A DNA stretch of 63,947 bases, counting the filler. It is 5 parts of 5 records of this genome, joined end to end, with 100 filler letters (N's around TTAATTAATTAA, not from the genome) between each part and the next. Parts side by side here need not be neighbours in the genome. Positions count along the whole stretch, not along the records: positions 52,080 to 63,947 come from SRR31156797_10523; 4 more parts are not named here. One strand, 5' to 3'. A program made the position numbers and the translations under genes. Shown here piece after piece: positions 6,901-60,331 of the stretch. Below the pieces are notes generated by a model. The model did not search any database. It had not been told where the DNA came from and saw only the letters and a program-made list of their open reading frames with translations. Position 1 is the stretch's first letter. The number at the start of each line of letters is the position of its first letter.

Positions 6901-9900
6901 CACCATCACCATCAATGAAGTTCCCTGTATTAAACCCATTTCTGTATAACCAGTATCTTACATTAGTTTCAGAACCATTTGTTGTAATAGTTGCAGCACC
7001 ACCTGTACAAATATCTCCACTAGTAACAACTTCGAAATCATCACGTAAAGCAGGACTTTCTGAAATGTTTACTACATTATTCATAATAGAAGTACATCCT
7101 GCTGTATTGGTAGCCTCTACTCTATATGTGCCATTGGCGAAAGGACCTGTAAAAACAATATCAACATTAGTATCTTCAATAATTCCGGTTTGAGGAGCAC
7201 CAACTTGGTTATCATTTTCATCATATAAAATATAGGTAACTCCTAATTGTTGACCTTTAACATGAATTGCATCAATACCAGCATCTCCAGGACAATATTC
7301 CTCACTACTTAAACCATTTTGAGTTTCCAAATTAAATGACGTTGGAGATACAAATCCCTGAATAATAACATCATTATTCATTGGATATAAACAACCTCCT
7401 GTATCTTCAGCAATAATAGAATAAGTACCATCACTACTTGCCGGAGCACCAAAATCCAATACTTCATCATCTGCAGAACTTGTTAACTCAATACCTGTTG
7501 TGGTACCATTATAATATAAGGTATATTTAACACCTGCATCAGAATCTGTTAAAGTAATATTAGCAGGTGAATCACCTTGACAATAACGACCATTAACTGG
7601 TTCTACATCATAAGTATTACCTGAACCCGCAGTAATAGTTAATTGCCCTTGCATATCCCTTTGACAACCACTCGAAATATTTTCAGCTCTAACTGTATAT
7701 ATTCCTGTAATATTATAATCACCGAAGTTGACTTCTACTCCATCATGAGTTCCATCTGTTGGACCTCCTACAATATTTCCATCTCTATATAATGTATAAG
7801 CAATTCCTAACTCAGAATTTAAAAGTTTTACAGGGATGGCAACACATGTATTTTCAACACCATTAGGGTCTAATGAATATATAGAAGGTAATGATTGAGC
7901 AGAAATGTTAACTGGATTATTCATTACTACTGAACAACCATTAGCTGACGCCTCTACTCGATATGTTCCTTCATCAATATTTTCAAATAGAATTGGCAGC
8001 GTATCATCTGTACCTACAGTTGAATCATCTGATTCATCTATTAAAGTATAGGTAAAACCAACTTCAGGATCAATAACATAAACACTTACGCTAGATGATG
8101 AACCTTGACAGAATGTACCACTTGTTCCAACATTTTTCGCTGTTGGCATAGGATTGACCTTCATTGCAATGTCATCGGACATATCTGTACAACCGTAAGC
8201 AGATTCCACCATTACAGAAACTCTGTCTCCATCCGAAAGGCTTGAATTTACATAAGTAGAAACTGCAGCCATACTTCCTAATGGATTTCCATTTAAATAG
8301 AATTGATAATTCGCTCCGCCACTTGCTGTAAATGTAACCTCTGTTCCTTCGCAGATAATATCTCCTTCATCAGAAAGCAATTCTGCAGTAGGATCAGGAT
8401 AAAATGCAATTGTAACTCGATTAGTCATTTCCGTTGGACATGTACCATCGGAAATATTTGTAGCAATTACATAGTACTCACCTAAATCTGTCTGATTTCC
8501 AAAGTTACGAACTGTTCCATCTCCATCTATAACACCTTTGCTTGTTCCAGAATTGGCACCTGGACTATCAGCTAAGAATAATTCATACCTCACATCGATA
8601 ACTGTACTTTCACTCATTCCAATTACAGCACCAACAGCGCCTCCAGAACAAACACTTCCTCCACCATCAACTGTTAATTTTGTAATGGCACCCGCTATAT
8701 CAATTGGAATATTAATATCATAATCATTAGTACAACCATTTAATTCTGCAACAACATTATAATTGGCTCCACTATCTGTAATTGGTGCAAACGAAATATT
8801 GTTTCCATCACCAATGATTTCAGCTCCAGTTACTTCAGTATCTGGTGTACCTCTTTTAAACAGGTGATAAATAGCACCTACTTGTGAATTTTCAATTGTA
8901 ATAACCACACCATCATCACAACCTGTACCTCCGGTAGTTAACCATGTTTTATCTTCAGGTAAAAGTTTTTCTAGTACATCAACCGTATTAAGCATTTCTC
9001 TGAAACAAGTTATGCCATTTTCAAGTCGACGTGCTTCAACTCTGTAAGTTCCTTCTACATTGATACCTGAAAATTCTAAGGCAGTTCCGGTTCCAGGAAT
9101 CCAACTTCCATTTGCTATATCAGCAGTTCCATCATTAGCCACCCAACGGTATTCTGCATCAGCCTCTGACCCATCAATAAAAATAGAAACAGAAGACCCT
9201 GTACAAAAATCATCAGACTTACTTACATTGAACCCATTCATTAATGGATTTTCTGCTACTGCAATAGTATTATTCATTGTAGAAGTACAACCAACTCCTG
9301 GTCTACTTGCTACTACATAATAATTATCGTTTAATACAAACGGTCCTGTAAAATTTAATAACGCCGAACCATCATCAACTGTACCTGTTACAGTCTCAAT
9401 ATTTACAGGTGCACCACCATTTTCTCTCCAAAGTGTATACTCAACTCCATTTTGTTGTCCTACTAACCAGATATTTACCCCTACTGGAAAACCATCTGGA
9501 TCTGGACAATAGAAACCATTATTGTCAGCTTGCAAACTAAATACAGTTGGATCGGTAAAGGCCGTAACAGTTACAGAACCATTCATTGGAAAACTACAAC
9601 CACCAGGTGTCTCTACCTGAACTGTATACACACCATCTATAGTTACCTTATTATCAAACGATAAAACAGAACCATTTCCTATTTTAGTTTGTTCAGGAGC
9701 AGCAGAGTTTCCGTTCAAAATTAACTGATACTCAACCGTTGCATCTGAACCTGTCATACCAATTGTTACTCCCGGATCACTATCTGACACGCAATAATCA
9801 CCAGTTCCCGGAGTACTTGTCATATCATAAGTAGTAACAACGACATCAGATTGTATTTCATAATCATCATTCATCTCTACATTACATAATGTAGCCGGAT

Positions 9901-12900
9901 TCGTTGCTCTAATTGTGTAAATACCGAATGCTGTTACGTTAGAATTTAATGTAAGAGCACCTCCTGTACTTACTACTGATGCTCCATACGGAGAACCATT
10001 TCTTAACAACTGATATTCAATACCAACTTCACTATCATCCAAACCAATTGGCCAACCTGCTCCACCATTACAACCTAGGTCTACGTCTGATGGAGTTATA
10101 TTATATACCTGTGGTAAAGGATTTTCATTAATCGTAATATCAGCAGTTGACATTCTTATAGAACAAGCATTTACAGTAGATCCAAATGCTACAACATGAT
10201 AAGTACCAGATGTAACATTAGTCCATTCAACTGTTGAGACTCCGTCTGCAACAACATCTGAACCTACAGGATTATCTCCTGCATCTTGTAATTGATACGT
10301 AACACCTGCTTCTGAATTTTGTAAATATATTCTTACACCAGTTGATGCCTCACAGTATTCTGTATTTTCAGCAACAACAGTTTGATCTTGCGGTAATTCA
10401 TCTAAACTTACTTCAACCTCATCTGTATCCTGACAACCTTTACTATCAATAACAGTTAAGTTATAAGTTCCTTCTTCATTTAAATCCGCTGTACCTAAGT
10501 CAGGATCTTCAGTATTATTAGCCACGTAGCCATTCGGTCCTGTCCAATTAAAAGTATAACCAGCTGTTCCTCCTGAAGCCGAACCATCCAACACTAAACC
10601 ATCATCTTCACAAATAGACTGATCGCTACCTGCGTCTGCAGTTGGTAAGGCATTTATAGAAATATTAATAGTTGATGACTGAGCAGAACACCCATTATCA
10701 GAAGCAATTACATATACACCTGTTATTGATGTATCGAATCCTGAACTAACTTCAAAGGTTTCACTTCCTAAAGTGTTTAGCTGTGTATTTGTAGTTCCAT
10801 CAGTTGAATAATAAACATAATTAGCGTATCCTGAAGGAGCTGCAGTTAAAGTTACAGCCTCATTCTCACAGTACTCTTGTCCTCCTACCGGTTGCGATAA
10901 GTTTACATTAGGAATAGCAATGGCTGTCATATTAATAGCAGTTCTATCTATACAACCATATACATTATCTGTAACTTCAACTTCCACTAACATGTTTGCA
11001 TTAATAGTAATATCTCTGGTAGAAGTAGTACTCGCTACACCTTGAGAAGCACCATCAACAAAAAATTCATAATTATAATCTCCAGACCCATCTGTTCCAC
11101 TGGCAGAAAATGTTACGGTTGTACCTGCACATACATTTGTTCCAGGAGGTGTTGGGTTAGTAATATTTAAAATTGCATTAACCTGATTAACTGTTACATT
11201 ACTTACTGTTGGAGTTAACGCAGAACATCCTGAAGCATTATCATAATTTACGGATACAGTTTGAGCACCAGCTGTATTCCAGGATACAGTTATTTCGTTT
11301 GTACCTGTACCTCCAGTTATTGTACCTCCTGAAGAAACTGTCCATACATAATTACTCATACTACCTTCCGTAGTATAAGTGACTCCTGCATCGCCTTCAC
11401 AAACACTTGCTGTACCAAGAATAGTTGGAACAGGCGCTGCATTTACAGTAATATTACTAGAAGTTGGACCTGTAGCCGTACATCCCGAAGTATTAACATA
11501 ATTAACAGATACTGTTTGAGCTCCACTTCCATTCCATGTAACTGTAATTTCATCGGTTCCTGCTCCCGCTGTTATTGTACCGCCTGCAGAAACAGACCAT
11601 GTATAATTACTCATTCCCGGATCAGTTGCGTAAGTAACACCTGCATCTCCCTCACAAACAATCAAGTTCCCATTGATAACAGGAACAGGTAAGGCATTTA
11701 CACTTACTGGATAATTAGTAGTGGACGCTGCATTACAACCTAATGCATTATCATAATTAACAGATACTGTTTGTGCACCTGCCGTATTCCATGTTACAGT
11801 TATTTCATCTGTACCAGCTCCAGCAGTAATAGTACCGCCTGCAGAAACACTCCATACATAATTATTCATTCCGGTTTCTGTACTGTATGTAACACCAGTA
11901 GTTCCTTCACAAACGGCATTTGTTCCAGAAACTGTTGGTACTGGTAAAGGATTAACAGTAACATTATATGAAGTTGGTGTTGCTGCAGCACAACCTAAAG
12001 CATTATCGTAATTTACCGAAATAGATTGGGCTCCTGCTGTACTCCATGTTACTGTAACTTGATTAGTTCCAGTACCTGCAGTTATAGTACCTCCTGTAAT
12101 ATTCCAAACATAGTTACTCATTCCTGCATCAGTCGTATATAAAATCCCTGCATCTCCGACACAAACATTATTATTCCCACCTAAACTTGGAGTTGGTGCA
12201 GCATTAACATTTACGTTATAATTTGTTGGAGAAAGTGCATCACACCCTTGTGCATTATCATAATTTACCGATACAGATTGTGCCCCGGGAGTATTCCACG
12301 TAACCGAAATTTGATTTGTACCTATACCTGCATCAATTTTTCCTCCAGCAGAGATACTCCAAACATAGTTATTCATTCCTGGCTCTGTAGAATAAGTTAC
12401 TCCTACTTCACCTTCACATACATCATTATCTCCTGACACCGTAACTACGGGTAAAGCATTTACTGTTACATTATAAGTAGTTGGTGCACTTGCAGGACAA
12501 CCTGCTGCATTTTCATAATTAACTGATACAGTTTGAGAACCTGCAGTATTCCATGTAACGGTAATTTCTTCAGTTCCTGCTCCTCCTGTAATAGTACCGC
12601 CTGTTACAGCCCATACATAATTATTCATTCCTGGATCTGTGCCATAAGTGATTCCAGCATCACTTTCACAAACAATATTATCTCCACTTATAGATGGAGA
12701 CGGTAATTCATTTACAGTAACATTAAGAACAGTTGGTGTTACCGTACCACAATTACTCGTATTTTCATATTCAACAGTTATAGTTTGAGGACCGGTAGTA
12801 TCCCAGTCAACTGTAATTTCATTCGTACCTGCTCCAGCAGTAATAGTTCCTCCCGCTGAAATCGTCCACACATAATTATTCATTCCTACCTCAGTAGAAT

Positions 12901-13975
12901 AAGTAAGGCCAGCATCCCCAACACAAACACTGTTACTTCCAGCAATTGTTGGATTAGGTAAGTCACTAACCGTAACAGCATAAACAGTTGGATTTTCAGC
13001 TTCACAACCGTTGGTATGTGTGTAATTAACCGAAACTGATTGCGCTCCGGAAGTATTCCAGGTAACCGTAATTTCATCAGTTCCTGCTCCTGCTGTAATT
13101 GTACCTCCAGCGGAAATAGACCAAGTATATCCTGACATACCTGATTCTGTAGAATAAGTCACTCCCGCATCGCCAACACATACATCATTATCTCCACCTA
13201 CTGTAGGCGTTGGTCGGGTATTTACTGTTACCTCAGCAGAACCCGTCATCCAGGTAAAACATTTAGAACTTGCTTCGGTATTATTATCAAATCCTTTTAC
13301 AGTATAAGTACCAGCTTCATTGACAAAAAAGTTTATTGCATTTCCATCTCCTAAGAAAGCACCATCTGTATTTATTAAAGTAACACCTCTATATAGGTTA
13401 TAGTAAGTTCCAGGATCCGTTGTCGGAAGCGAAATGGTTGTTATATCCCCATCACACACAACAGCAGTTTGTGTAAAGTCGTATGCACTAGGGGTCTTAT
13501 TTACCACAGTTACATCTACATCATCCAAACTACCATCAGTTCCTATCTGCTTATATGAAATCTTAACATTTACTCCATAATATGCACTCGGCACCACAGC
13601 CGGATTAAAAGATATTCCATTATTTGGTGAAGTTCCAATTGGTGTAACCCAATCATTATGCTCTTCATAGTTACCTGTTACAACAGCTCCTGTATAAACA
13701 GTCCACTCAATATCTGTTCTTGTTGGATCTAAATTTCCGGCATCAACATAAATATCAACTGGTAAATCTGTTGAGCAAAAGCGATCTGGCAAATCAGTTA
13801 AAACATTATTGGCACCCTTCAAGCTTGATAGTCCATAATATTTAACTATTTCTGCACGACTAGCATCAAGCCCTGGTTTTTCGCCTGTTTGCGCAAAAAC
13901 TCCTACCCCAACAGAAAACATTCCTATTGAAATAAGAGCAAGGATACTTATGAAACGGTTTAAGTTTTTCATCAT
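3998..13975 (-). CDS. Giant T9SS-secreted repetitive adhesin (SprB-like) with type B C-terminal sorting domain
   Basis: Signal peptide; many Cys-containing Ig/PKD-like repeats; C-terminal IPNAFSPNGDDINDYFKI...VFNRWG...WDG...LPNGTYFY...GYIELRR (gliding-motility CTD). Confidence 0.9.
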   Translation of the reverse strand: MMKNLNRFISILALISIGMFSVGVGVFAQTGEKPGLDASRAEIVKYYGLSSLKGANNVLTDLPDRFCSTDLPVDIYVDAGNLDPTRTDIEWTVYTGAVVTGNYEEHNDWVTPIGTSPNNGISFNPAVVPSAYYGVNVKISYKQIGTDGSLDDVDVTVVNKTPSAYDFTQTAVVCDGDITTISLPTTDPGTYYNLYRGVTLINTDGAFLGDGNAINFFVNEAGTYTVKGFDNNTEASSKCFTWMTGSAEVTVNTRPTPTVGGDNDVCVGDAGVTYSTESGMSGYTWSISAGGTITAGAGTDEITVTWNTSGAQSVSVNYTHTNGCEAENPTVYAVTVSDLPNPTIAGSNSVCVGDAGLTYSTEVGMNNYVWTISAGGTITAGAGTNEITVDWDTTGPQTITVEYENTSNCGTVTPTVLNVTVNELPSPSISGDNIVCESDAGITYGTDPGMNNYVWAVTGGTITGGAGTEEITVTWNTAGSQTVSVNYENAAGCPASAPTTYNVTVNALPVVTVSGDNDVCEGEVGVTYSTEPGMNNYVWSISAGGKIDAGIGTNQISVTWNTPGAQSVSVNYDNAQGCDALSPTNYNVNVNAAPTPSLGGNNNVCVGDAGILYTTDAGMSNYVWNITGGTITAGTGTNQVTVTWSTAGAQSISVNYDNALGCAAATPTSYNVTVNPLPVPTVSGTNAVCEGTTGVTYSTETGMNNYVWSVSAGGTITAGAGTDEITVTWNTAGAQTVSVNYDNALGCNAASTTNYPVSVNALPVPVINGNLIVCEGDAGVTYATDPGMSNYTWSVSAGGTITAGAGTDEITVTWNGSGAQTVSVNYVNTSGCTATGPTSSNITVNAAPVPTILGTASVCEGDAGVTYTTEGSMSNYVWTVSSGGTITGGTGTNEITVSWNTAGAQTVSVNYDNASGCSALTPTVSNVTVNQVNAILNITNPTPPGTNVCAGTTVTFSASGTDGSGDYNYEFFVDGASQGVASTTSTRDITINANMLVEVEVTDNVYGCIDRTAINMTAIAIPNVNLSQPVGGQEYCENEAVTLTAAPSGYANYVYYSTDGTTNTQLNTLGSETFEVSSGFDTSITGVYVIASDNGCSAQSSTINISINALPTADAGSDQSICEDDGLVLDGSASGGTAGYTFNWTGPNGYVANNTEDPDLGTADLNEEGTYNLTVIDSKGCQDTDEVEVSLDELPQDQTVVAENTEYCEASTGVRIYLQNSEAGVTYQLQDAGDNPVGSDVVADGVSTVEWTNVTSGTYHVVAFGSTVNACSIRMSTADITINENPLPQVYNITPSDVDLGCNGGAGWPIGLDDSEVGIEYQLLRNGSPYGASVVSTGGALTLNSNVTAFGIYTIRATNPATLCNVEMNDDYEIQSDVVVTTYDMTSTPGTGDYCVSDSDPGVTIGMTGSDATVEYQLILNGNSAAPEQTKIGNGSVLSFDNKVTIDGVYTVQVETPGGCSFPMNGSVTVTAFTDPTVFSLQADNNGFYCPDPDGFPVGVNIWLVGQQNGVEYTLWRENGGAPVNIETVTGTVDDGSALLNFTGPFVLNDNYYVVASRPGVGCTSTMNNTIAVAENPLMNGFNVSKSDDFCTGSSVSIFIDGSEADAEYRWVANDGTADIANGSWIPGTGTALEFSGINVEGTYRVEARRLENGITCFREMLNTVDVLEKLLPEDKTWLTTGGTGCDDGVVITIENSQVGAIYHLFKRGTPDTEVTGAEIIGDGNNISFAPITDSGANYNVVAELNGCTNDYDINIPIDIAGAITKLTVDGGGSVCSGGAVGAVIGMSESTVIDVRYELFLADSPGANSGTSKGVIDGDGTVRNFGNQTDLGEYYVIATNISDGTCPTEMTNRVTIAFYPDPTAELLSDEGDIICEGTEVTFTASGGANYQFYLNGNPLGSMAAVSTYVNSSLSDGDRVSVMVESAYGCTDMSDDIAMKVNPMPTAKNVGTSGTFCQGSSSSVSVYVIDPEVGFTYTLIDESDDSTVGTDDTLPILFENIDEGTYRVEASANGCSVVMNNPVNISAQSLPSIYSLDPNGVENTCVAIPVKLLNSELGIAYTLYRDGNIVGGPTDGTHDGVEVNFGDYNITGIYTVRAENISSGCQRDMQGQLTITAGSGNTYDVEPVNGRYCQGDSPANITLTDSDAGVKYTLYYNGTTTGIELTSSADDEVLDFGAPASSDGTYSIIAEDTGGCLYPMNNDVIIQGFVSPTSFNLETQNGLSSEEYCPGDAGIDAIHVKGQQLGVTYILYDENDNQVGAPQTGIIEDTNVDIVFTGPFANGTYRVEATNTAGCTSIMNNVVNISESPALRDDFEVVTSGDICTGGAATITTNGSETNVRYWLYRNGFNTGNFIDGDGGVLDPPFSVSQGGTYTLEAENSAGCRTFLVDDAVISETNLPTVKAIVSDGSLDCSVGAVITVQLADPDIIYQLYKRTGNGDILVDGSDISHSGVVPTDIAFAPITDRNAYYTVKASNGSCNEIDMSNDPGVDLTNFDDVYVDISEAALRFEVTPDIADICNGDQGRRFGLINSEEGVVYSLYRAQLATETADVYKESITGPLGGGSIQFVGVYNEPGEYYVLADNGLCATQTEMINRPTLTVNPLPTAFKMTGSGFYCDVIDGAEIGLESQEANVRYTLQFEDGSHVGDVLGGSFNDSISFGEFTMPGSYTAVAINENTLCTSNMEGIVEVIQVDTPEDQFLLASTDTVYCGITAGVEFILANNELDVTYQVREVSTSNIISKVVGTNDTGSDVELAFPDIIPEGTYEIWKSRGGDACVSITNGGKVIEVIHESEPNDWNIEVDKYNACSSEFVTLTLDGFDDGRAYRIENDDEGAILDTITNLDRGSISWELNTSGLETGTVFYEVFALSVTGACDKSMGLVKIDYRDAPAVPQYILSDTAYCDSEAGVNVGILDTENGIAYILRDEFYNAYGFIDGNGSDIYFLNAIQAGRYYISARNFDTGCETLSVDSFDITINPNPDIQEFYIEGFECVTAPCNGIVDVTELMLANSVLGTTYSLMLDNAFILPMVDSIGTSNSINFGTRSESGEYTVIATNIEGCSAIMDGVVQLDEFPLEAITDSVSINKDVLVGGALLGLNDIFNSAVDVLGVRDDLGLIVEEGNIRFKVVDGFVDNSGQLIANEDGELVTTIGVVAIDSITGVLNYEKLPGFYGLDSLRYSIVNRDNPDRYDEAIVYIYVGNKALDENKTFLIPNAFSPNGDDINDYFKITGINKNGVTAEKSSLEVFNRWGTLVYRSKGDVYGDDNEWWDGTSSTSNMVSIGSELPNGTYFYIFKVQANEKVYNEDNDMYENKIIEKEYNGYIELRR
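11188..13216 (-). repeat. Eight tandem ~84-85-aa Ig/PKD-like repeats within the adhesin
   Basis: Repeated unit PxPxIxGxxxVCxGxxGVTYxTxxGMxNYxWxVSxGGTITAGAGTxEITVTWNTxGAQTVSVNYxNxxGC counted 8 times. Confidence 0.9.
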
Positions 13976-18039: not shown

Positions 18040-18139
18040 NNNNNNNNNNNNNNNNNNNNNNNNNNNNNNNNNNNNNNNNNNNNTTAATTAATTAANNNNN
18101 NNNNNNNNNNNNNNNNNNNNNNNNNNNNNNNNNNNNNNN
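18040..18139. other. Artificial contig linker (N-run / TTAATTAATTAA / N-run)
   Basis: 100-nt spacer with six-frame stop; identical at all four junctions. Confidence 0.98.
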
Positions 18140-30646: not shown

Positions 30647-30746
30647 NNNNNNNNNNNNNNNNNNNNNNNNNNNNNNNNNNNNNNNNNNNNTTAATTAATT
30701 AANNNNNNNNNNNNNNNNNNNNNNNNNNNNNNNNNNNNNNNNNNNN
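30647..30746. other. Artificial contig linker
   Basis: N / TTAATTAATTAA / N. Confidence 0.98.
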
Positions 30747-39812: not shown

Positions 39813-39912
39813 NNNNNNNNNNNNNNNNNNNNNNNNNNNNNNNNNNNNNNNNNNNNTTAATTAATTAANNNNNNNNNNNNNNNNNNNNNNNNNNNNNNNN
39901 NNNNNNNNNNNN
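39813..39912. other. Artificial contig linker
   Basis: N / TTAATTAATTAA / N. Confidence 0.98.
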
Positions 39913-50091: not shown

Positions 50092-51078
50092 CTAATTCCT
50101 TTTTTGTCCAGGTTTTGGTTGGCTTACTTGTTTTTGCATCTCAATACTTAAGTTGTGATAGAAAAGCTCACCATAATCTGTTGTTCTGTTTATTGTTTCA
50201 TAGGCTTGTGCCAAAGTGTTATTGTATCTTACTGCATCTTCTAAAATTTTTATAATTTTGATTGATTCTAAAAAATTAATATGACTTGGAGCTTCAATTG
50301 GAGAGGAATAATACTTGTGCATTCTTTCAACCAAGTTTTTATTTCTAATCTCTATAAACACAGACTCAATTGGAGACTTAAAGAAAAGAATCTTTTGTTT
50401 TACATTAATTGAGATATATGTTGTTTCCATCCCATATATTTTCCTTGAAAAAGAATCAAATAAAAAAAGCTTTTTGTTGTAGTTGTTATTAAACAATTCA
50501 TATATCAACTCTAAGATTTTTATTTTTTCCTCTTTTGTATAAAAGTTACCAATCGAAGCAAAACAGAAAGTTAATACAGATTTTATAGAATACCACTCTG
50601 TTGTATCATAATCGTATTTCAACATTTGTTGAATTCTTGCTTGTTTTAACTCTTCAACACTGTTCATATCGTTTGATATTCTTGTTCTATAGATTCTTTT
50701 TACAGCAGTATCTCTATACATAGGTCCTGGAAACTGAGATTGGATTACAAACCTTCTATTTTTTTCAATCTCCATTATGTATCTTAATCTACCAAAATAA
50801 TCTTCATCTATGATTCTTACTTCTTTTTGAGGTATTTGAGTAATTGATTTTATAAACTCTTCCCCTGCACACCCCTCTTCCCAAATAAAATCAGGGTATC
50901 TAAAAATCTGACAGATTTTATTTTTCACATCATCATTTGGTTCTATATCAGAAATGTTGTCAATCCATGATGTTACAGTTCTTCTGTCTTTCTGGATTAA
51001 TGAAGCAAATTTAGATATACTTAAATTCGAACGCTTAAATATTTCAATAAACTTTTCTATTCCATTCTTATATGTCAT
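50092..51078 (-). CDS. Hypothetical protein with N-terminal XRE-like HTH, divergent from prpB
   Basis: LSISKFASLIQKDRRTVTSWID helix-turn-helix pattern; rest unrecognised. Confidence 0.65.
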   Translation of the reverse strand: MTYKNGIEKFIEIFKRSNLSISKFASLIQKDRRTVTSWIDNISDIEPNDDVKNKICQIFRYPDFIWEEGCAGEEFIKSITQIPQKEVRIIDEDYFGRLRYIMEIEKNRRFVIQSQFPGPMYRDTAVKRIYRTRISNDMNSVEELKQARIQQMLKYDYDTTEWYSIKSVLTFCFASIGNFYTKEEKIKILELIYELFNNNYNKKLFLFDSFSRKIYGMETTYISINVKQKILFFKSPIESVFIEIRNKNLVERMHKYYSSPIEAPSHINFLESIKIIKILEDAVRYNNTLAQAYETINRTTDYGELFYHNLSIEMQKQVSQPKPGQKRN

Positions 51079-51250: not shown

Positions 51251-51979
51251 ATGAGCGCAGGAAAAAGATTTAGAGAAGCACTAAAAGAAGAATCTCCACT
51301 ACAAATCGTGGGAACAATCAATGCTTATCAAGCACTTCAAGCTACAAAAGTAGGACATAAAGCAATTTACCTTTCAGGTGGAGGTATTGCAAATGCTTCA
51401 TACGGTTTACCTGATTTAGGTATGACTATGATTGAAGATGTATGTATTGATATTAGAAGAGTTACTTCTATTTGTGATACTCCATTAATCGTTGATGCAG
51501 ATACAGGTTGGGGACATGCATTCAATGTGGCTAGAACTGTAAAAGAATTCATTAGATCTGGAGCGGCAGGACTACATATTGAAGATCAAGTTGCTGCAAA
51601 AAGATGTGGACACAGACCAAATAAAGAGTTAGTTTCTACTGAAGAGATGTGTGACAGAATCAGAGCTGCAGTTGATGCAAAAATGCAACTAGACCCTGAT
51701 TTTTATATCATTGCAAGAACAGACGCACATGCTAGTGAAGGACAAGAAGCTGCAGTTGCAAGAGCAAAAGCATATGTAGAAGCTGGAGCAGATGCAATTT
51801 TTGCGGAAGCTATTCATACTTTAAAAGAGTATAAAGAGTTTACTGAACAAATGACAGTACCTGTATTAGCAAATATTACTGAGTTTGGAGCAACTCCAAT
51901 GTTTACAACTGAAGAATTAGCATCAGTTGGAATTGAAATGGTACTTTATCCATTATCAGCATTTAGAGCAATGAACAAA
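51251..51979 (+). CDS. prpB: 2-methylisocitrate lyase, 3' truncated
   Basis: [41 protein letters not shown]. Confidence 0.95.
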
Positions 51980-52079
51980 NNNNNNNNNNNNNNNNNNNNN
52001 NNNNNNNNNNNNNNNNNNNNNNNTTAATTAATTAANNNNNNNNNNNNNNNNNNNNNNNNNNNNNNNNNNNNNNNNNNNN
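51980..52079. other. Artificial contig linker
   Basis: N / TTAATTAATTAA / N. Confidence 0.98.
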
Positions 52080-52553
52080 TATATTTGAAGTAACATAGTC
52101 TGTTCCACCAGTAAGCGTTATTGCTATTAGTCCTCTTGTTGTATCAATTGTTGTCCCTCCAGGATCATTTGAATATGTTTTGAATCTAACTGAAATACTG
52201 TTATCTACAGCTATCCCAGAGGATGTTGAAATCAAGTTAAAATCAGCAAATAAAGAAATATCCTGAGTCATAGTAATAGTTAGTGGATTAGTAGTACTCT
52301 CTTGATATAGATCACCTGCCCAATTAGCAAATTCGTAACCGTCTTCCGCCGTAGCAGTTAATGTAACAGTTTCATTTACATCATAAATTTCCTTACTGGT
52401 AGACGTAGTAACAGCTCCCTTATCTGTATGTACGCTACCAACTTTTAAAGTATAGCTTGTAGTATTCGTTGACGAAGTAGTTTCAGTTGTAGTGTCTTCA
52501 TCGCAACCAAATAATAACAAGCCAGTAAAACATAGTAATAAAATTTTTTTCAT
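52080..52553 (-). CDS. Surface lipoprotein with InlB B-repeat/Flg_new-like domain, 3' truncated
   Basis: Lipobox LFGC; VTLTATAEDGYEFANWAGD...NPLTITM...LFADF. Confidence 0.8.
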
Positions 52554-52896
52554 TCTTCCCTCTCCCTTTTAGTATTTTTTATATAAATTTTTTTGTTAAA
52601 AAAGATTCTCTAAAACGCATATAAGTTGCTTAAAGTCGTGTTTGAAGATATTTATTAATCGATTTGATATTAATTTAACATAATATTATAATATAAAAGA
52701 GAATTATTAAATTCTCTTAGTTAAAATTTTAAATAAATTATCTCCAGACGATTTAATTAAACAGGTATTTTATATAGTATAATTATACCAAAATCAGCTT
52801 AAAAGTGTAAGGAAATTTTTCGAAAAAATAAGCAAATATAGGCTTAGTGACAACTAATACAACTACAAAGCTTTAGTCATTAACATAATTTGCCAC

Positions 52897-52925
52897 TTGC
52901 TTTCATTTCCAACATATGTTAAAAT
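52897..52925 (+). promoter_or_regulatory. Sigma-70 promoter for the long leader of the XRE gene
   Basis: TTGCTT-17 bp-TAAAAT with extended TG; predicted +1 near 52932 coincides with the first helix of the structured RNA. Confidence 0.7.
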
Positions 52926-53097
52926 TTAACCAAGGGGAATTGTCACTTATGTTTTCATGAGTAAAGTCCTGATAAAATTGAATATAACTAATTGTATGAA
53001 GAAATAATAAATTTTCAGTTTCATGCTTCGAAAATTAACCATTGATTCATTGGTGAATTTTCTTGATTCAGCTAAAATTTATTTATTTCATTAAGTT

Positions 53098-53172
53098 AAA
53101 AAAAAACGGCCGAGGGATTGCAGTCCCCCGACCAAGTAGCCACACGGTACCGAGAATACCATGCGACGACTT
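53098..53172 (-). ncRNA. Counter-transcribed antisense small RNA (~75 nt, two hairpins + U-tail)
   Basis: Own promoter; hairpins GTCGCATGGTA/TACCGTGTGGC and GGTCGGGGGA-CTGCAA-TCCCTCGGCC followed by T9; G-U pairs are valid only on the minus strand. Confidence 0.75.
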
Positions 53173-53178
53173 AACACA

Positions 53179-53207
53179 ATTATAACACAACGAGGTTGTT
53201 TTGAAAA
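53179..53207 (-). promoter_or_regulatory. Promoter of the antisense RNA
   Basis: TTTTCA-17 bp-TATAAT with extended TG (TGTTATAAT) on the minus strand. Confidence 0.75.
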
Positions 53208-53417
53208 GTACAAAGCATTAGCTTTTCCTTAACTTTTGCAGAAGTTACGGGCTTTTTAGACATATTTTCAGTTGTGCATTTTCTGCTGTCATAGTTTCTT
53301 TTTGAAAGACTCAATGATGGTCATTTTAGTAATGCAAAATTTTGGGGATATTACCCTGTCTTTTTGTAATACCGGAATTTTGAGAGAATATTTTGTGTAT
53401 AAACAGTTGATGATATT

Positions 53418-53449
53418 GGTCAAGTACATTGTGTGCTTGGCCTTTTTTT
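53418..53449 (+). terminator. Conditional intrinsic terminator (attenuator) inside the leader
   Basis: GGTCAAGTACA-TTG-TGTGCTTGGCC 11-bp stem + T7, about 250 nt upstream of the XRE start codon. Confidence 0.8.
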
Positions 53450-53702
53450 AATATAATTTATTTTGATTTCATTAAGAGTTAAAAAGAAAATCAAAATAAA
53501 TTTGTAAGCAGGTTTCAAACGGAAGCCGTTTTGCTTTTTAAATGGCGAAAGTGCGAAACCGTGTGAAGAAGCAACCCTACTTAGAAGCTAATATTTATAC
53601 TTGCATATTTTCATCAACTTAATTGGTTAATTTATCAAGACGACAATTCCTCTGTTTTTACTATAACTAAGGAGTCTAAAAAAACATAGCGGGAGGATTA
53701 AT

Positions 53703-54020
53703 ATGTGTAATTTTACTGTAAGTGTAGAAAGAAGAAAAGTTTTGGGGAAACAATTGTTAAAAAAGAGAATGAAAGAGCAAATACCACTAAATATGCTGGC
53801 TAAGAAAGCGGGACTTGAGCCGAAATTTATCGAGGAGTTAGAGGCAGGAGGTATAGTGGAGATTAATCCTCTTATCCTAATGGAACTAGGTGAATTACTA
53901 GAGATAAATTATATCTATTTATATCAGATATTAGGTTATGTACATAATCGAGCATTGCTTAAGCATCTCATATGTGAGGACAATGTATATCCTCTCTCTG
54001 AAGATAGAGCTTGGGTATAA
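53703..54020 (+). CDS. XRE-family helix-turn-helix protein
   Basis: GGGAGG RBS; LGKQLLKKR...LNMLAKKAGLEPKFIEELEAG...INPLILMELGELLEINYIYLYQILGY. Confidence 0.85.
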   Translation: MCNFTVSVERRKVLGKQLLKKRMKEQIPLNMLAKKAGLEPKFIEELEAGGIVEINPLILMELGELLEINYIYLYQILGYVHNRALLKHLICEDNVYPLSEDRAWV

Positions 54021-54037
54021 TCAGGAATAGAAATTTT

Positions 54038-54079
54038 ATAGAAAATATTAAATTTTTTTTAATATTTTCTATTTTTTTT
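54038..54079 (+). terminator. Terminator after the XRE gene
   Basis: ATAGAAAATATTAAA / TTTAATATTTTCTAT perfect stem + T-run. Confidence 0.7.
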
Positions 54080-54263
54080 GAAATTAATAACTATTTCACA
54101 CTAAAAATCAATTGTAAAATAATAGTATTTAAATAGCAAAATGTCGTTAAAATAATTTTACTTTTTCACAATTCACCTTTCATATATTTGTATAATCTTT
54201 GCGATACAATACTTTTAAAAAACATTTTGATCTGTTTTAACACACGAGGCAGTTTTAGAGCTA

Positions 54264-54292
54264 TTGACAACTTTTACATTCAGTGGTATCAT
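54264..54292 (+). promoter_or_regulatory. Sigma-70 promoter upstream of the EIIB / substrate-binding genes
   Basis: TTGACA-17 bp-TATCAT with extended TG. Confidence 0.75.
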
Positions 54293-54569
54293 CTTATTAG
54301 TATAGAAGACTAGTCAATTAGTTCGACGTTTAAGTTGAGGCGAAAAAGAGTAAAATAAACATAAAATTATTTTATTACTACCAGCACAAAAATTTTTTCT
54401 GAAAATAGGAAACGATTCCAAAAACTTAAATAAAAACTAAAATTGGTGCTTATGCAGATTTCATAATTATGAATCTCCCATTAGAAATAATAATCTGTAT
54501 AAGTTGATATTATTATTTATTAAATTTTAAAAATTTTTAAATAAAGTTATTAGGGAGGATGATATTGAT

Positions 54570-54908
54570 ATGAAATATTTAAAAAAAATTACGGAATTTT
54601 TTTACAGAAAAAATGCAGTAGGCAAAAATGATCTGCCTGAAGAGAAAGTTAATGAACTTATAGAAGGATTAGGAGGAAAAGAAAACATATGCTTAGTTAG
54701 GAATTGTTTTATGATACTTCAATTTGCATTAAAAGATACAAATAAAATTAATGTTGTTAAACTTTGCTTAAGTGGAGCATCAGAAGCAAGAGTTCTATCA
54801 GATACACAAGTAGATATTATTTTTAATTCGGAAGTAAGTTTAATAGAAAGAAAGTTGAGAGAAGTTATTAGTAGTGGGGCAGAAAGATATTATTTAATTG
54901 GAAATTAA
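54570..54908 (+). CDS. Stand-alone PTS EIIB (glucose-class) domain protein, degenerate active-site loop
   Basis: LIEGLGGKENI..V.NCFMILQF...GAS...QVDIIF; GGGAGG RBS. Confidence 0.75.
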   Translation: MKYLKKITEFFYRKNAVGKNDLPEEKVNELIEGLGGKENICLVRNCFMILQFALKDTNKINVVKLCLSGASEARVLSDTQVDIIFNSEVSLIERKLREVISSGAERYYLIGN

Positions 54909-54944
54909 GAAATCAGTTTTTACTATGATTTGGAGGAGGTTATT

Positions 54945-55832
54945 ATGAAAAAGTTGACTTTGATAATTAGTCTATTTCTAATTACTATATCTACAACTTT
55001 TTCAATTGCTCGTATAAATTATATGATATCAGCATCTGAGAAAGCAAAGAAAAACGAATATTATCTGGATGTTTTAAAATTGGCATTAGATAAATCAAGA
55101 GATAAATATGGTGATTATGAGTTAATAGGTCACGGTGGAGACAGAGTTCAGAGTAGAGTAATTGAAGCGGTAAAAAGAGGTACTAAGGTTGATATTATGT
55201 GGACAATGACTTCTGCTAGCAGAGAGAGGGAATTATTGCCTATTAGGATACCATTGTTTAAAGGTTTATTAGGTTATAGGATATTCATTATTAGGAAAAA
55301 TGATAATGATAGATTTGATGAAATTGAGAGTTTTGATGAATTGAGGAAATTATCTGCCGGTCAGGGTCATGATTGGCCTGACACTGAGATATTGAGGTTA
55401 GCCGGTATGAATGTTGATACAGCACCTGAGTATAAATATATATTTAAGATGTTAACCGGTAAAAGATTTGATTATTTTCCAAGAGGTGTTAACGAACCCT
55501 GGAAAGAGATAGAAAATTTCGAAAAAGGAGAATTAGCAGTTGAAAAAACAATTTTACTGCAATATCCGGCACCAATATATTTTTTCGTAAATAAAAATAA
55601 GTCAGGACTTGCATCAAGAGTTACTTACGGACTCACTAAAGCAATAGAGGACGGAAGTTTTAATAGATTACTATTTACACATGAGCAAAACGTCAACATA
55701 TTTGAACAAGTCAACTTTTCTGAGCGGAAAATTTTTAAGATTGAAAACCCGCTTCTTTCGCAAGCAAGTAAAGAAGTATTAAAAAATGAAAATTACTGGT
55801 ACAAACCGGGAGAAGAGAAGAAATATAAATAG
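54945..55832 (+). CDS. Extracytoplasmic solute-binding protein (family-3-like), no partner permease visible
   Basis: Signal peptide; PIRIPLFKGLLGYRIFII, GQGHDWPDTEIL, RFDYFPRGVNE, LQYPAPIYFFV; GGAGG RBS before ATG 54945. Confidence 0.8.
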   Translation: MKKLTLIISLFLITISTTFSIARINYMISASEKAKKNEYYLDVLKLALDKSRDKYGDYELIGHGGDRVQSRVIEAVKRGTKVDIMWTMTSASRERELLPIRIPLFKGLLGYRIFIIRKNDNDRFDEIESFDELRKLSAGQGHDWPDTEILRLAGMNVDTAPEYKYIFKMLTGKRFDYFPRGVNEPWKEIENFEKGELAVEKTILLQYPAPIYFFVNKNKSGLASRVTYGLTKAIEDGSFNRLLFTHEQNVNIFEQVNFSERKIFKIENPLLSQASKEVLKNENYWYKPGEEKKYK

Positions 55833-56149
55833 CGTAAATTTATGCAAAAATTAATATTTTCTGAAATACAGTATACTAGATACGGAATCTATAGATTGTT
55901 GATTTTAAAAGTAAAAGTTTAATAGAACTAAAGTATTATTCTCTATAGTAAAGCAAAATAACCCTAAATCTTATTCGAGAGTATGATTCTAAACTCAGAT
56001 ATTTTGAGCTATAATTTTGATGTAAAATAAAAACGTGAAAGTTACATTAAATTAAGAAGAGAGTTTTTATGAAAAAATCAAAATTATTAATTTTTATGCT
56101 TGCATTAACAATATTATTAACTAAGATTATCCCAAAAGAAATTATATAT

Positions 56150-57235
56150 TTATAGTAAAATTATAAATATAATCAAAAGAATCCCGCTACCAATAAATAT
56201 ATTAAATAATATATTAACTAAAATTTCTTTAATAGATGTATTAGTTTGTTTCATATTATTATAAAAAGATGAGTCTTGCGGATATTTAAAATGAAAATCT
56301 TTTGTCTTAATTAATTTGTAATCAAATAAGAAATTATTCTTTTGTTTTCCATCGATTACTTTTGGAATTTTTAGATTTTTAGTTATTTTTTCTATATTTT
56401 CAAATAATTTTTCTCCCATCTTTTCTCCGCAGTAGAGATTTCCGCCGAATGCTCCGGTATCGATATAAAAGCTCCAATTGACATATATAGGGTTCATTGT
56501 TACCTTGCTTAATTCAGGAAGAACGGCATCATAGGAAAAAACTTTGTTTGTATTATCTCTAAAAAAAACATAATACATTATTATTTCATTTTTCTTTAGA
56601 GAAGCAACTTTTTTTACTAATTCTGAAAATTCATAATCATCAAGCCATTCGATTTCCAAATCATAATCTGATTTTTCAAGAATAGAGTTAATATTCTTTT
56701 TAATATTTTGCCCGGTGATACTTATATCTGTAATCAAATATAGCTTTCTTGCATTAGGATTTTGATCTATTGCTAGAGCTAAATTAGCCCTATAATCAGG
56801 TTCCTCCAGCATTAAATAATGATTGTCATGTGTAAAATAATAACTCTCCTCGAGACTATTAATTCCTGCTGATATTATTGGTATGTCTTTAAAGAAGTCA
56901 TACTTTTTTTTGACGATATATTTATGTGCAAAATCATCAATTGGAACAATTAAATCAAGATCGTAGCTCTGATATTTTTTAGTAAATTGAATATCATACT
57001 TTTCGAGAGATAGTTCATCGTTATATTTTTTAGCATCCATATATTCAACAAAAAACTTATAATTACTATTTTCCGGCTTGATAGATTTGTTAATTCCTTT
57101 TTGAATTTGTTTTGTCCATAAATAATCCTCTGAATATGAGTGAAGAATTAAAATGTTTTTTTTAATTTTATATTCTTTGGATTGAATAAATACAAATATT
57201 AAAATATAAGTGAAAAGTAATACGGATTTTCTCAT
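56150..57235 (-). CDS. Membrane-anchored sensor (ABC substrate-binding-like) domain that stops right after TM2; probably a truncated kinase/cyclase
   Basis: ILILHSYS..YLW, EYMDAKK, PIISAGIN, GAFGG motifs of periplasmic sensor modules; no cytoplasmic output domain. Confidence 0.65.
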   Translation of the reverse strand: MRKSVLLFTYILIFVFIQSKEYKIKKNILILHSYSEDYLWTKQIQKGINKSIKPENSNYKFFVEYMDAKKYNDELSLEKYDIQFTKKYQSYDLDLIVPIDDFAHKYIVKKKYDFFKDIPIISAGINSLEESYYFTHDNHYLMLEEPDYRANLALAIDQNPNARKLYLITDISITGQNIKKNINSILEKSDYDLEIEWLDDYEFSELVKKVASLKKNEIIMYYVFFRDNTNKVFSYDAVLPELSKVTMNPIYVNWSFYIDTGAFGGNLYCGEKMGEKLFENIEKITKNLKIPKVIDGKQKNNFLFDYKLIKTKDFHFKYPQDSSFYNNMKQTNTSIKEILVNILFNIFIGSGILLIIFIILL

Positions 57236-57292
57236 TTAATTCTCCTAATAATTATTTATTAAACTTGTGATAATGAATCGATTCCGAATTTG

Positions 57293-57323
57293 AAAAGAGA
57301 AGCGGATGAAATATATCCGCTTC
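57293..57323 (-). terminator. Intrinsic terminator after the 57357 remnant
   Basis: GAAGCGGAT-N7-ATCCGCTTC followed by TCTTTT on the minus strand. Confidence 0.6.
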
Positions 57324-57356
57324 ATTTATGAACATAGAATTTTTTAAATAAATTAC

Positions 57357-57651
57357 TTAATATGTAAAATTTGCATTTTCAATTATTTGATTTGGAATTT
57401 CTAAACCTAACTTACCTGCAACTGTTTGTTTTATAGAAATATAGTTATCGTCTAAAAATCTAACTGGCATATTTACGGGATTTTTATTTTCATAAACAAC
57501 TTCCTTTACCATATCCAGTAATATTTTTAGCTACAAGTAAGGCATCAGAAGTTACTGATATTATTAGATTATAGCCCTTTGAGTCTATTTCTCTCATAAC
57601 TTTTATTGCAGTTGAATCATTTTCTTTTCCCGAAAATTGCTCAACAAACAT
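57357..57651 (-). pseudogene. Internally deleted, frameshifted ABC_sub_bind-type substrate-binding protein remnant
   Basis: One frame gives ...SGKENDSTAIKVMREIDSKGYNLIISVTSDALLVAKN (N-terminal lobe); it shifts to ...KNPVNMPVRF...ISIKQTVAGKLGLEIPNQIIENANFTY* (family C-terminus). Confidence 0.6.
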
Positions 57652-58114
57652 GTTTTTATGTTAATCACGATAAATTAACTAAAGTTATAATAAATATATA
57701 GTCAACTATACAATTTCTACAAGAAAAATATATCATTTATCTCCATGGAAGTCAATTTAAATTTTTACTTCTTCAAAAAAACTGTTCTTTTTTTCATTTT
57801 ATTTGTTTTGTTTTAGGAGGCGAATATGATGAAATGTCATTGTGAAGAGATGATAATATTCTTCTTAACTTACTTATTGGCATTTCTATGAAAAAATAGC
57901 AGTTACTTATTTTTAATCACGGTCATAACAATTTCTATTTAATAATTTTTGGGACGATCATCCACCAAAAGAACAAAAGGTGTTTTTATAGAACGTATTT
58001 TTAAAATAAATAAGCTAGACAACTAGACAAAATAAATGAGAATGTGATATAATTGAGCTATATTAAGCAATGAAATTTATAGAGAACACAAAAAAATTGT
58101 GGGAGGAATTGGAA

Positions 58115-60298
58115 ATGTTTAAATCACTATCTGGAAAAATTATAAGTGTGATGTTGCTGATAACATTAGTAATTAACAGTGTTATTATTTTTAGTGTTAT
58201 CAAGATTAATCGTAGAGAAATTTTAGCTAAGCAAATGGAAATGAATAAAAATGAAGTTAATAAAACTTTGGCTTCTATTCAAAGTATGCAAGATAATTTA
58301 ATTCAAATGAAAGAAGAGAAACAAACAGTAGTTAAGAAAAGGTTAAAAGAACACGTCGAAAATGGAATAAGTGTTTTACAATTTTATTATGATAAATATC
58401 AGAATGGTGAAATGAGTGAGGCTGACGCAAGAGAGGAAGCTAAAAAAGCTGTTAGAGGTCTTAGATATGGTAATGGAGGCTATTTCTGGATGGATAACAA
58501 AGATTATATATTGGAAGTGCTTCCGCCAGCTCCGCAAAAAGAAGGTATGTACAGAGCAGATATTAAAGATGTAAACGGTACAAGACTTGTAAAAGAGTTA
58601 GTTGATGGAGCTATGAAAAATGGTGCTACGTATGTAACGTATTGGTTCCCTAAAATGGGCGAAACAGAACCTTCTCCTAAATTAGGAAGAGCTCAATATT
58701 TTGAAGCATGGGGATGGATTATTGGTACAGGCGAGTATATTGATAATATAGATAAGGAAATAGCTGTTCTGGAGAAAAATCAAAATGAAATATTGAATAA
58801 TACAATATATGCAGATGCAGATGATGCGGCGTATAATTTGATTTTAGATCAAGATGGTATGGTTGTTGCTCACCCGGATCAAAGTTTAATAGGAACTAAA
58901 TATAACTTAGTTGATGTTAAGACTGATGAAGATTTAGTAGCTAAATACTATGAACAAAACGATGGTATCGCGGAGTATTACTTTCCGAGAAAAGGAGAAG
59001 GAGCCCATAAGAAGATAGGTTATGCTAAGGTTGATAAAAGAACAAATTGGCTTGTTATGTTTATGGCCTATGAGGATGATTTATTAAAAACAGTAAAGAA
59101 AACGACGAGATTGATTTTAATTATTTCATTGATTAGTTTAATAGTTTCTGGGGTAATAATTAAAATTGTAGTTAATCTAATGCTTGGAAGGGTGTCAGAT
59201 ATTACTACAAGGATTAATCAACTTGCTGATGGTGATTTCTCTAAGAGATTAGATATAAAAGGTAAAGATGAGCTTGGAGTGATAGCTTCATCGCTTAATA
59301 ATAAAACGGAAAAAGTAAATAATATTATTTCTAAAGTTGTCTCTGTAACTGATGAAGTTGTTGATAATAACAGCTTACTAGCTATGACAATGGAAAATAT
59401 TGTAAAAGGAAAAGATTCTGGAATAAATATAAATAGTTCGAGTTATTTAGATGATGGAATTTATCAATTGAAAGATTTCATGAGAGATGTAATGGATAGT
59501 GTCAGAAATCAAACTGCTAGTTCTGAAGAGTTTTTAGCAGGTCTTGAAGAGATATCTGCTACAGCGAGAACAATTGGTAAAACGACAAATGAAGCTCTTG
59601 GAGATTCAAAGGAGTCAGTTGAAAATGCAGGTGTTGGAATTAATAATATTGGAAGAATGGAGCAAAGTATATCGACTATTAACACAAGTGTTGATAATGC
59701 AAATACTAAAATTGATAATTTGGGAGCCTTGTCACAAAATATTGGTGATATATTAGAAGCCATAAATGGACTATCAGACCAGACTAATCTATTAGCACTA
59801 AATGCTGCGATAGAGGCAGCAAGAGCAGGCGAAGCAGGAAGAGGTTTTGCTGTAGTTGCAGAGGAGATCAGAAAATTAGCAGAGAGAACAAATGACGAAA
59901 CTGGGAAGATAGAAAAAGTGATAGTGGAGATACAGAATGAAGTTGGTAGAGTAAAATATGCCAATGAGGAAGTTACGAAAAATGTTGATGAAGGCCTAAA
60001 AGTTACAGAAGAGCTAAAAACTTCGATGGATTTAGTAGTTGAGTCAATAAGAAGAAGTGATGAGAATATCAAAGAAATATCGGAATCGATAAGAGAGCAA
60101 ATAATAGCCTCTGATGAGATTACTGTAGCTGTATCGGCAATTGCTGATAGCTCAACAACGATTGAGGAGAAAACAACTTCAACTTATGACACTATAGAGA
60201 AAATATCTCAGATATTAGATGAGAAGTTAAGAGATGTAAGTGAAATATCAAATCAAGTAGAGCGCTTAAAAAAAGATGTCGGATTTTTTAAGCTATAG
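58115..60298 (+). CDS. Methyl-accepting chemotaxis protein with Cache domains and HAMP
   Basis: [10 protein letters not shown]...[14 protein letters not shown] Cache; [52 protein letters not shown] before 58115. Confidence 0.95.
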
Positions 60299-60331
60299 AA
60301 AATAATTCATAAAAAACTCTATATATATAAT

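Follow-up and report, generated by a model that had tools for sequence, protein, structure and literature searches.

The structured locus described here occupies positions 52932–53655 of a 63,947-nucleotide (nt) window, the whole stretch of DNA analysed, in which five contigs are joined end to end with filler. It lies on the last contig (SRR31156797_10523, 52080–63947), with the contig end 850 nt to its left and an XRE-family gene to its right. It is composed of two arms that pair over a long distance, an AT-rich hairpin, a plus-strand structured part with two domains, an intrinsic terminator and, on the opposite strand, a candidate small RNA (sRNA) gene (Table 1). We read it, tentatively and with slightly less than even confidence, as a composite non-coding locus: a structured plus-strand leader or non-coding RNA (ncRNA) with an embedded cis-antisense sRNA, upstream of the XRE gene. 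The sequence-based part of this reading comprises strand-specific folds, terminators, promoter-like boxes and long-range helices; that RNAs are made from the locus, and that they control the XRE gene, we infer.

The self-complementarity and strong folding of 52932–53655 are real. The plus strand reaches a minimum free energy (MFE) of −192.3 kcal/mol, compared with −144.4 ± 6.1 for dinucleotide shuffles (z −7.86; 0 of 20 shuffles as good), while two control spacers of the same contig, 57290–58013 and 54021–54569, score −3.03 (0 of 20 shuffles) and −1.79 (6 of 100). The strong structure that a first-pass annotation of this DNA had put forward is thereby borne out. The full plus-strand fold exceeds that of the minus strand (z −5.74) by 22 kcal/mol, and the terminated 521-nt plus form scores z −4.29. 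G+C content is 0.41 at 53100–53299, compared with 0.20–0.27 in the flanking spacer. The only open reading frames (ORFs) in the stretch are of at most 59 amino acids (aa), so that its description as free of ORFs holds approximately, and the evidence supports a stretch that is non-coding and exceptionally structured.

Three outer helices, present in both the MFE and the centroid structures, pair 52933–44 with 53642–53, 52966–76 with 53631–41 and 52985–94 with 53620–29, with mean pair probabilities of 0.99, 0.81 and 0.72, respectively. A fourth long-range helix, absent from the first-pass annotation, is a perfect 9-bp pairing of 53405–13 with 53611–19 (pair probability 0.88). The two arms alone cofold at −50.6 kcal/mol, compared with −33.5 ± 3.1 (best −42.7) for 100 shuffled 3′ arms, and the outer 12-mer occurs within the window at these two sites only, against 0.18 expected. 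Six nested long-range helices had been proposed; the three outer ones stand, and the three inner ones, ATGAAG/TTTCAT, AGTTTC/GAAGCT and TGCTTC/GAAGCA, are dropped at pair probabilities of 0.036, 0.008 and 0.008. Most of the proposed local hairpins are recovered, those at 52945–62, 53030–62, 53227–50 and 53323–78 as well as the junction at 53511–60 all being in the MFE structure; a closing helix between 53262–69 and 53384–91 is not, 53262–69 pairing with 53192–99 instead.

Folding of individual segments on both strands, with 60 dinucleotide shuffles per segment, separates parts of opposite polarity: 53098–53172 folds far better on the minus strand and 53174–53400 on the plus strand (Table 1). 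The non-canonical pairs follow the same division. Within the plus fold, G-U pairs and A-C mismatches number 1 vs 5 at 53108–53172 and 16 vs 1 at 53186–53389, and the A-C mismatches of the former become G-U on the minus strand, contrary to the earlier statement that G-U pairs are consistent on the plus strand.

From these features we read 53098–53172 as a candidate gene, on the minus strand, for an antisense sRNA of ~75 nt. Its 17-bp hairpin contains five G-U pairs (−19.1 kcal/mol), and its G+C-rich terminator hairpin (53134 to 53107, −18.5 kcal/mol) is followed by nine U. An extended −10 box, TGTTATAAT, lies at 53187 to 53179 and predicts a start at ~53172–53170. The sRNA sequence is perfectly complementary to the plus leader, and antisense to any plus transcript from 52932. 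Duplexes between the sRNA and other parts of the plus RNA have energies within the range of shuffled sRNAs, and only short complementarities (7–9 nt, by eye) connect the sRNA target with the terminator region.

On the plus strand, the predicted start (~52932) precedes the outer helix by 1 nt. The motif TGTTAWAAT occurs six times in the window, compared with 6.42 by chance; two of the six fall within the locus, as the plus box and the minus sRNA box, and in both cases a predicted structure begins 6–7 nt further downstream. Terminator-like sites number five in 52500–54400, compared with 0.5 ± 0.8 in shuffles, among them those at 53134 to 53107 (minus) and 53418–53442 (plus). The plus-strand terminator (−14.3 kcal/mol, pair probability 0.97) is positioned 110 nt before the start of the 3′ arm at 53560 and ~170 nt before the three supported helices, so that formation of the closing helices would require transcripts that read through. 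Directly after the closing helix the sequence reads GTTTTT. Beyond the XRE gene, an AT-only hairpin with a T run probably marks the end of the XRE transcript, as read from the sequence; AT-only terminator-like hairpins (53455–53502 and 54038–54072) may be a habit of this genome.

Table 1. Features of the structured locus and its surroundings, and strand-specific folding of its segments (positions in the window)
Feature	Position	Strand	Details
Promoter-like site	52897–52925	+	TTGCTT-17-TAAAAT; extended −10 TGTTAAAAT at 52917–52925
5′ arm	52933–52994	+	Blocks 52933–44, 52966–76 and 52985–94; interrupted by hairpin 52945–62
AT-rich long hairpin	53001–53089	+	Encloses near-perfect palindrome 53030–53062
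Candidate sRNA, ~75 nt	53172–53098	−	Own box, 17-bp hairpin and terminator; z −6.39
Promoter-like site of candidate sRNA	53207–53179	−	TTTTCA-17-TATAAT with TG; 10 of 12 matches
Plus-specific structured part	53174–53400	+	53174–79/53393–98 enclose both domains; pair probabilities 0.78–1.0
Domain 1	53186–53276	+	Three-way fold
Domain 2	53278–53389	+	Two hairpins closed by 53278–84/53383–89
5′ half of fourth long-range helix	53405–53413	+	Pairs with 53611–53619; encloses terminator through to 3′ arm
Intrinsic terminator	53418–53449	+	11-bp stem (53418–53442), two G-U, 3-nt loop, seven U
AT-only perfect 15-bp hairpin	53452–53506	both strands fold	Stem 53455–69/53488–502
Small three-way junction	53511–53560	+	Closing-helix pair probability 0.56; inside 93-nt piece 53497–53589
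3′ arm	53611–53653	+	53611–19, 53620–29, 53631–41 and 53642–53; ends 37 nt before XRE ribosome-binding site
XRE-family gene	53691–54020	+	GGGAGG ribosome-binding site 53691–96; 105-aa ORF 53703–54020
AT-only 15-bp hairpin, then T run	54038–54080	+	Perfect hairpin 54038–54072; sequence read
Segment folded alone	52932–53095	both	+ z −1.83; − z −0.76
Segment folded alone	53098–53172	both	+ −16.9 kcal/mol, z −2.20; − −38.3 kcal/mol, z −6.39
Segment folded alone	53174–53400	both	+ −57.0 kcal/mol, z −3.55; − −36.2 kcal/mol, z −1.13
Segment folded alone	53400–53510	both	+ z −4.75; − z −3.07
Segment folded alone	53505–53655	both	+ z −0.73; − z −0.62

The 105-aa ORF downstream, preceded by a strong ribosome-binding site, is a genuine but rare XRE-family gene, judging by its protein relatives. 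Pfam detects in it sub-threshold helix-turn-helix (HTH) matches only (HTH_19, 13.8 bits vs a cut-off of 30.2), and a word-based search with the ORF gave no matches. HMMER was run in full over 1.84 billion representatives and detected 45 relatives with E values no higher than 0.001; the top three are 38–43% identical, of equal length and aligned along the whole protein. Because relatives align over the whole length and one of them, P0001 (E 6e-15, 41% identity), passes Pfam HTH_3 (31.4 bits vs 23), the ORF can be assigned to the family; the regulator named in the first-pass annotation is thus visible solely through relatives of the ORF. An XRE profile gave weak matches in 2 of 184 genomes of the family Arcobacteraceae and, in viral contigs, 199 pattern matches of which none was confirmed, and the nearest relatives are singletons on metagenome contigs of 0.9–10 kb. 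In the likely source run, a 416-nt contig at depth 39.1 aligns to the ribosome-binding site and the opening 48 nt of the ORF (53696–53750) with 5 of 55 positions differing, which suggests a second related gene or strain in the sample.

Searches for relatives of the RNA itself were negative in every genome set. Rfam 15, including ROOL, GOLLD, OLE, HEARO, raiA, 6S and the countertranscript RNA (ctRNA) families, gave no match at gathering score over the whole window, and the six matches of 52700–53900 at E up to 10 all fall 17.9–64 bits below their gathering scores, in agreement with the earlier failure to recognise a family. BLAST with 52880–53700 matched none of 80 PrpB-anchored loci. Against the 184 Arcobacteraceae genomes, with two candidates scored per genome, the full stretch gave short matches only, in 29 genomes and mostly in AT-rich DNA (best E 2.8e-5; the longest match 70 nt, on 77 nt of query); the core 53095–53350 at E up to 0.01 likewise gave only short matches (22 of 184, longest 59 nt), and the most conserved core 28-mer, allowing up to three mismatches, was found in none of the 184. 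A covariance model of 53098–53210 on the minus strand (R1) scored 147 bits at its own site and found nothing in 151 family genomes. None of 401 genomes in a Campylobacterales sample matched with E at or below 1e-4, plasmids and phages gave no match at 1e-3 (pieces of at most 48 nt were all that appeared when E was allowed to reach 10), and viral contigs gave none for three patterns. In the one scan of metagenomes, made with a 20-mer, two loci appeared; the shared sequence is 20–23 nt only, and we treat both as chance.

Outside sequences come from an estuary metatranscriptome (X2). A 155-nt contig (record 15) equals 53191–53345 with two letters different, and four further contigs give diverged matches: 53092–53134 (4 of 43 positions differing), 53157–53203, 53174–53210 (1 of 37) and 53176–53208. 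By our own estimate, those at 53092–53134 and 53174–53210 appear too good for chance. Records 11 and 12 are relatives of the minus sRNA region, and the loose ends of record 12 extend the similarity: in an alignment by eye, all 11 letters leading up to the loop of the sRNA hairpin agree, and six of the seven loop letters differ. There is therefore a family with a conserved core, 53092–53345, present in the RNA library. Outside sequences cover this core only and none covers the arms; the lack of coverage of the arms and of 53346–53655 in X2 contigs is no evidence of their absence. A separate 260-nt plus RNA starting at ~53191, where record 15 begins, was considered and rejected as the main model, the sole −10-like box, TATAAC, being without the final T and without TG.

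Within the likely source run (X1), one Logan contig, at 11,868 nt as long as the locus contig, is identical to 52081–54600 without any difference. Summed contig depth is 219.6 at 53173–53256, compared with 37.6 elsewhere, and more abundant relatives in the source sample probably share this piece. In another contig, one letter alone separates 53496 from 53590 (depth 23.9, vs 37.6 for the main contig); the sample therefore seems to contain a variant without the three-way junction.

Under the composite reading, a plus transcript would start at ~52932 from its extended −10 box, cross the long structured leader and mostly stop at 53418–53449, yielding an RNA of ~518 nt. Inside the leader, the opposite strand would give rise to the ~75-nt sRNA, from 53172 to 53098, with its own box and a strong terminator. 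Transcripts that read through would close the whole leader, their first ~60 nt pairing with 53611–53653 just upstream of the XRE ribosome-binding site. Binding of the sRNA to the nascent leader may shift leader folding, and the shifted folding would set the share of transcripts that stop at 53449 vs those that reach the XRE gene, which would amount to antisense-RNA-mediated attenuation. Such antisense-controlled attenuation of the XRE gene we infer; comparable plasmid systems are discussed below.

Several observations weigh against this interpretation. There is no alignable homologue in the searched genome sets, and hence no covariation for any helix. RNA-library support consists of contigs, from which strand and expression cannot be read, and DNA may be present in the library. 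Alone, the 5′ part (52932–53095) and the 3′ part (53505–53655) are non-significant on either strand, and the whole minus strand also folds well, as DNA-level inverted repeats would. The source-run contig that skips 53497–53589 makes this piece dispensable in some cells. The plus promoter is missing from the consensus scan, its −35 box matching at three of six positions, too few for the scan, and with a perfect TATAAT at 53452–57 the XRE gene may be transcribed from separate promoters. The sRNA target lies 250 nt upstream of the terminator, and no alternative pairing that links the two better than chance was found.

A DNA-level inverted-repeat cassette of ~720 bp is an unlikely alternative to which we nevertheless give some weight; it would be derived by recombination or resemble a miniature inverted-repeat transposable element (MITE), with the sRNA gene among its cargo, or it would be an invertible segment. 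Its ends would be imperfect terminal inverted repeats, of ~35 bp on the right and with the same blocks on the left split by two insertions, and by our own reading the three arm blocks are 29/33 identical as inverted repeats; as DNA similarity, however, a gapped local alignment of the arms is non-significant (score 25 vs 18.3 ± 3.0, maximum 29). Like MITEs, the locus is ~0.7 kb long and non-coding, with imperfect inverted ends that would fold into a long stem when transcribed; unlike them, its inverted ends are split by insertions of 21 and 8 nt, it has no target-site duplication or other direct repeat flanking the arms, neither its ends nor any part of it recurs within the 64-kb window, and no copy is present in the 184 family genomes. 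Both strands fold significantly, the contig has no close counterpart in relatives and so may be accessory DNA, the contig ends 850 nt to the left, and the core stands beside unlike flanks in several RNA-library contigs. Against this, no recombinase or transposase was identified among the 10 contig ORFs scanned with Pfam, and the source-run contigs contain no strand-switch joint, though contigs drop rare variants.

We consider improbable the first-pass proposal itself, a single ornate plus-strand RNA from 52932 to ~53655, closed by its 5′/3′ helices and acting in cis on the XRE gene or independently. The full-length z-score is stronger than that of any sub-segment, the outer helix with its high pair probabilities begins 1 nt after the predicted start, the plus strand outfolds the minus strand, and the closing helix is followed by GTTTTT. 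The argument against one RNA of ~720 nt is that a clearly minus-strand unit occupies 53098–53172 and has a promoter box and a terminator to itself, that a strong plus terminator lies inside the stretch, and that outside sequences are limited to 53092–53345; in addition, the pair probability is at most 0.04 for three of the six long-range helices proposed, one source-run contig lacks 53497–53589, and neither an Rfam match nor a homologue in the genome sets searched was found. The proposal thus keeps its non-coding, exceptionally structured and Rfam-less character and loses its unity to the strand mix and the internal terminator, and the locus probably comprises two or more RNAs rather than one.

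An AT-rich spacer without dedicated function, in which several terminators and palindromes coincide by happenstance, we judge improbable as well. Other spacers of the contig are structured too, promoter-like hexamers are common (19 vs 11.1 expected in the signal scan), and no conservation appears in any genome set searched; yet the z-score of the stretch is far beyond those of both control spacers, the terminators point away from a promoter region that they share and there is no gene for them to terminate, a G+C-rich island is present, and near-identical as well as diverged copies occur in an independent RNA library.

Small ORFs with a ribosome-binding site number two in the stretch, both on the minus strand, one of 12 aa and the other of 40 aa (53213–53091, preceded by AGGA). 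The latter starts upstream of the sRNA promoter, crosses the terminator and stops beyond the U tract, and by our own reading a 2-nt gap at 53174 in record 12 shifts its frame. On the plus strand, a 59-aa ORF (53272–53451) ends in the terminator. Both the 40-aa and the 59-aa ORFs are hydrophobic, many antitoxin RNAs are built, like the antisense sRNA here, of two hairpins, and long 5′/3′ pairing is known in the toxin mRNAs hok and AapA1, but a type I toxin-antitoxin-like module, pairing a small membrane-active peptide gene with the antisense sRNA, is very improbable given that the 59-aa ORF has neither a ribosome-binding site nor a detected homologue and that the 40-aa ORF runs through the sRNA unit and is shifted in frame by the gap in record 12.

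The layout of the composite locus resembles that of the leaders of plasmid rep genes. In pT181 and pIP501, these leaders are controlled by attenuation through an antisense RNA, or countertranscript, represented in Rfam by ctRNA families. As in those plasmids, a small structured antisense RNA is predicted inside a long leader, transcribed from a separate promoter and ending at a separate terminator, and the sense leader has an intrinsic terminator (here 53418–53449) that separates the target from the ORF. In contrast to them, the downstream gene encodes an XRE-family regulator and not a replication initiator, no plasmid matches, target and terminator are 250 nt apart with no pre-emptor pairing above chance, no ctRNA model matches and the context looks chromosomal. 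By analogy, the layout would work like rep-leader attenuation, although the locus is no member of those families.

Large ornate bacterial RNAs offer a second comparison. ROOL, GOLLD and OLE share with the locus a size class of 500–800 nt, many nested helices, a non-coding nature and, for all, a function that is unknown (Kretsch et al., Nature 2025, PMC12286853). Unlike them, the locus has mixed strand polarity, an internal terminator and no homologue family in genome sets, and no match to their Rfam models appears, not even with E values of up to 10. A survey of G+C-rich intergenic regions in Arcobacter sp. L reports that most of the novel regions are rare, confined to the genus and unnamed (Stav et al. 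2019, PMC6429828). The locus is likewise an island of higher G+C content within a long spacer, in a genome that is AT-rich and Arcobacter-like, and it may overlap with these unnamed motifs.

As read here, the locus would be a cis-antisense sRNA with a structured leader, a known kind of system, and we make no claim that the arrangement is unpublished. If the predicted RNAs exist, a chromosomal regulator gene of Campylobacterota would be governed by a structured leader of great length in which an antisense sRNA is embedded, a layout known mainly from plasmid copy control. It is a rather remote prospect that the ~720-nt leader, tied from its first nucleotides to the region of the XRE ribosome-binding site and housing its own antisense sRNA gene, perhaps as a self-contained and possibly mobile, inverted-repeat-bounded 'RNA switch cassette', represents a new large regulatory RNA architecture. 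More generally, a very strong fold score over a long stretch can sum units on both strands, which is a trap. We regard the locus as a lead and not a discovery: an orphan candidate whose Arcobacter-like source organism is uncultured or poorly sampled.

The four joins of the window (18040–18139, 30647–30746, 39813–39912 and 51980–52079) each consist of N runs around a stop-codon spacer, TTAATTAATTAA, and truncate genes such as prpB (51251–51979) and a lipoprotein gene (52080–52553). The joins are artificial, and gene neighbourhood across them is therefore meaningless. PrpB, encoded on the neighbouring contig, is 97% identical at the protein level to Halarcobacter, Aliarcobacter and Poseidonibacter assemblies, which makes the assembly Arcobacteraceae-like. 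A DNA search with 54500–60300 matched only a conserved MCP signalling domain (172 of 184 family genomes) and found no close counterpart of the locus contig; for two proteins of this contig, the five nearest genomes have only a very distant counterpart or none, and a 300-aa neighbour protein, 33–40% identical, was found in 14 of the 184. Pfam matches among 10 contig ORFs include an InlB B-repeat lipoprotein and EIIB-like, Cache-MCP, flavodoxin-like and flavin reductase proteins; no mobile-element or phage gene was detected among these 10, whose functions are ordinary cellular ones, PADLOC gave 0 of 5 on contig proteins, and the context looks chromosomal.

Three further observations concern the surrounding DNA. 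In the spacer upstream of the locus (52587–52674), another source-run contig skips 86 nt (depth 39.1, side 24 nt). On the first of the five contigs, the minus strand carries a 3325-aa ORF (3998–13975). Beside prpB, a 328-aa ORF on the minus strand (50092–51078) has no Pfam match and shows 73–84% DNA identity in many Arcobacteraceae loci.

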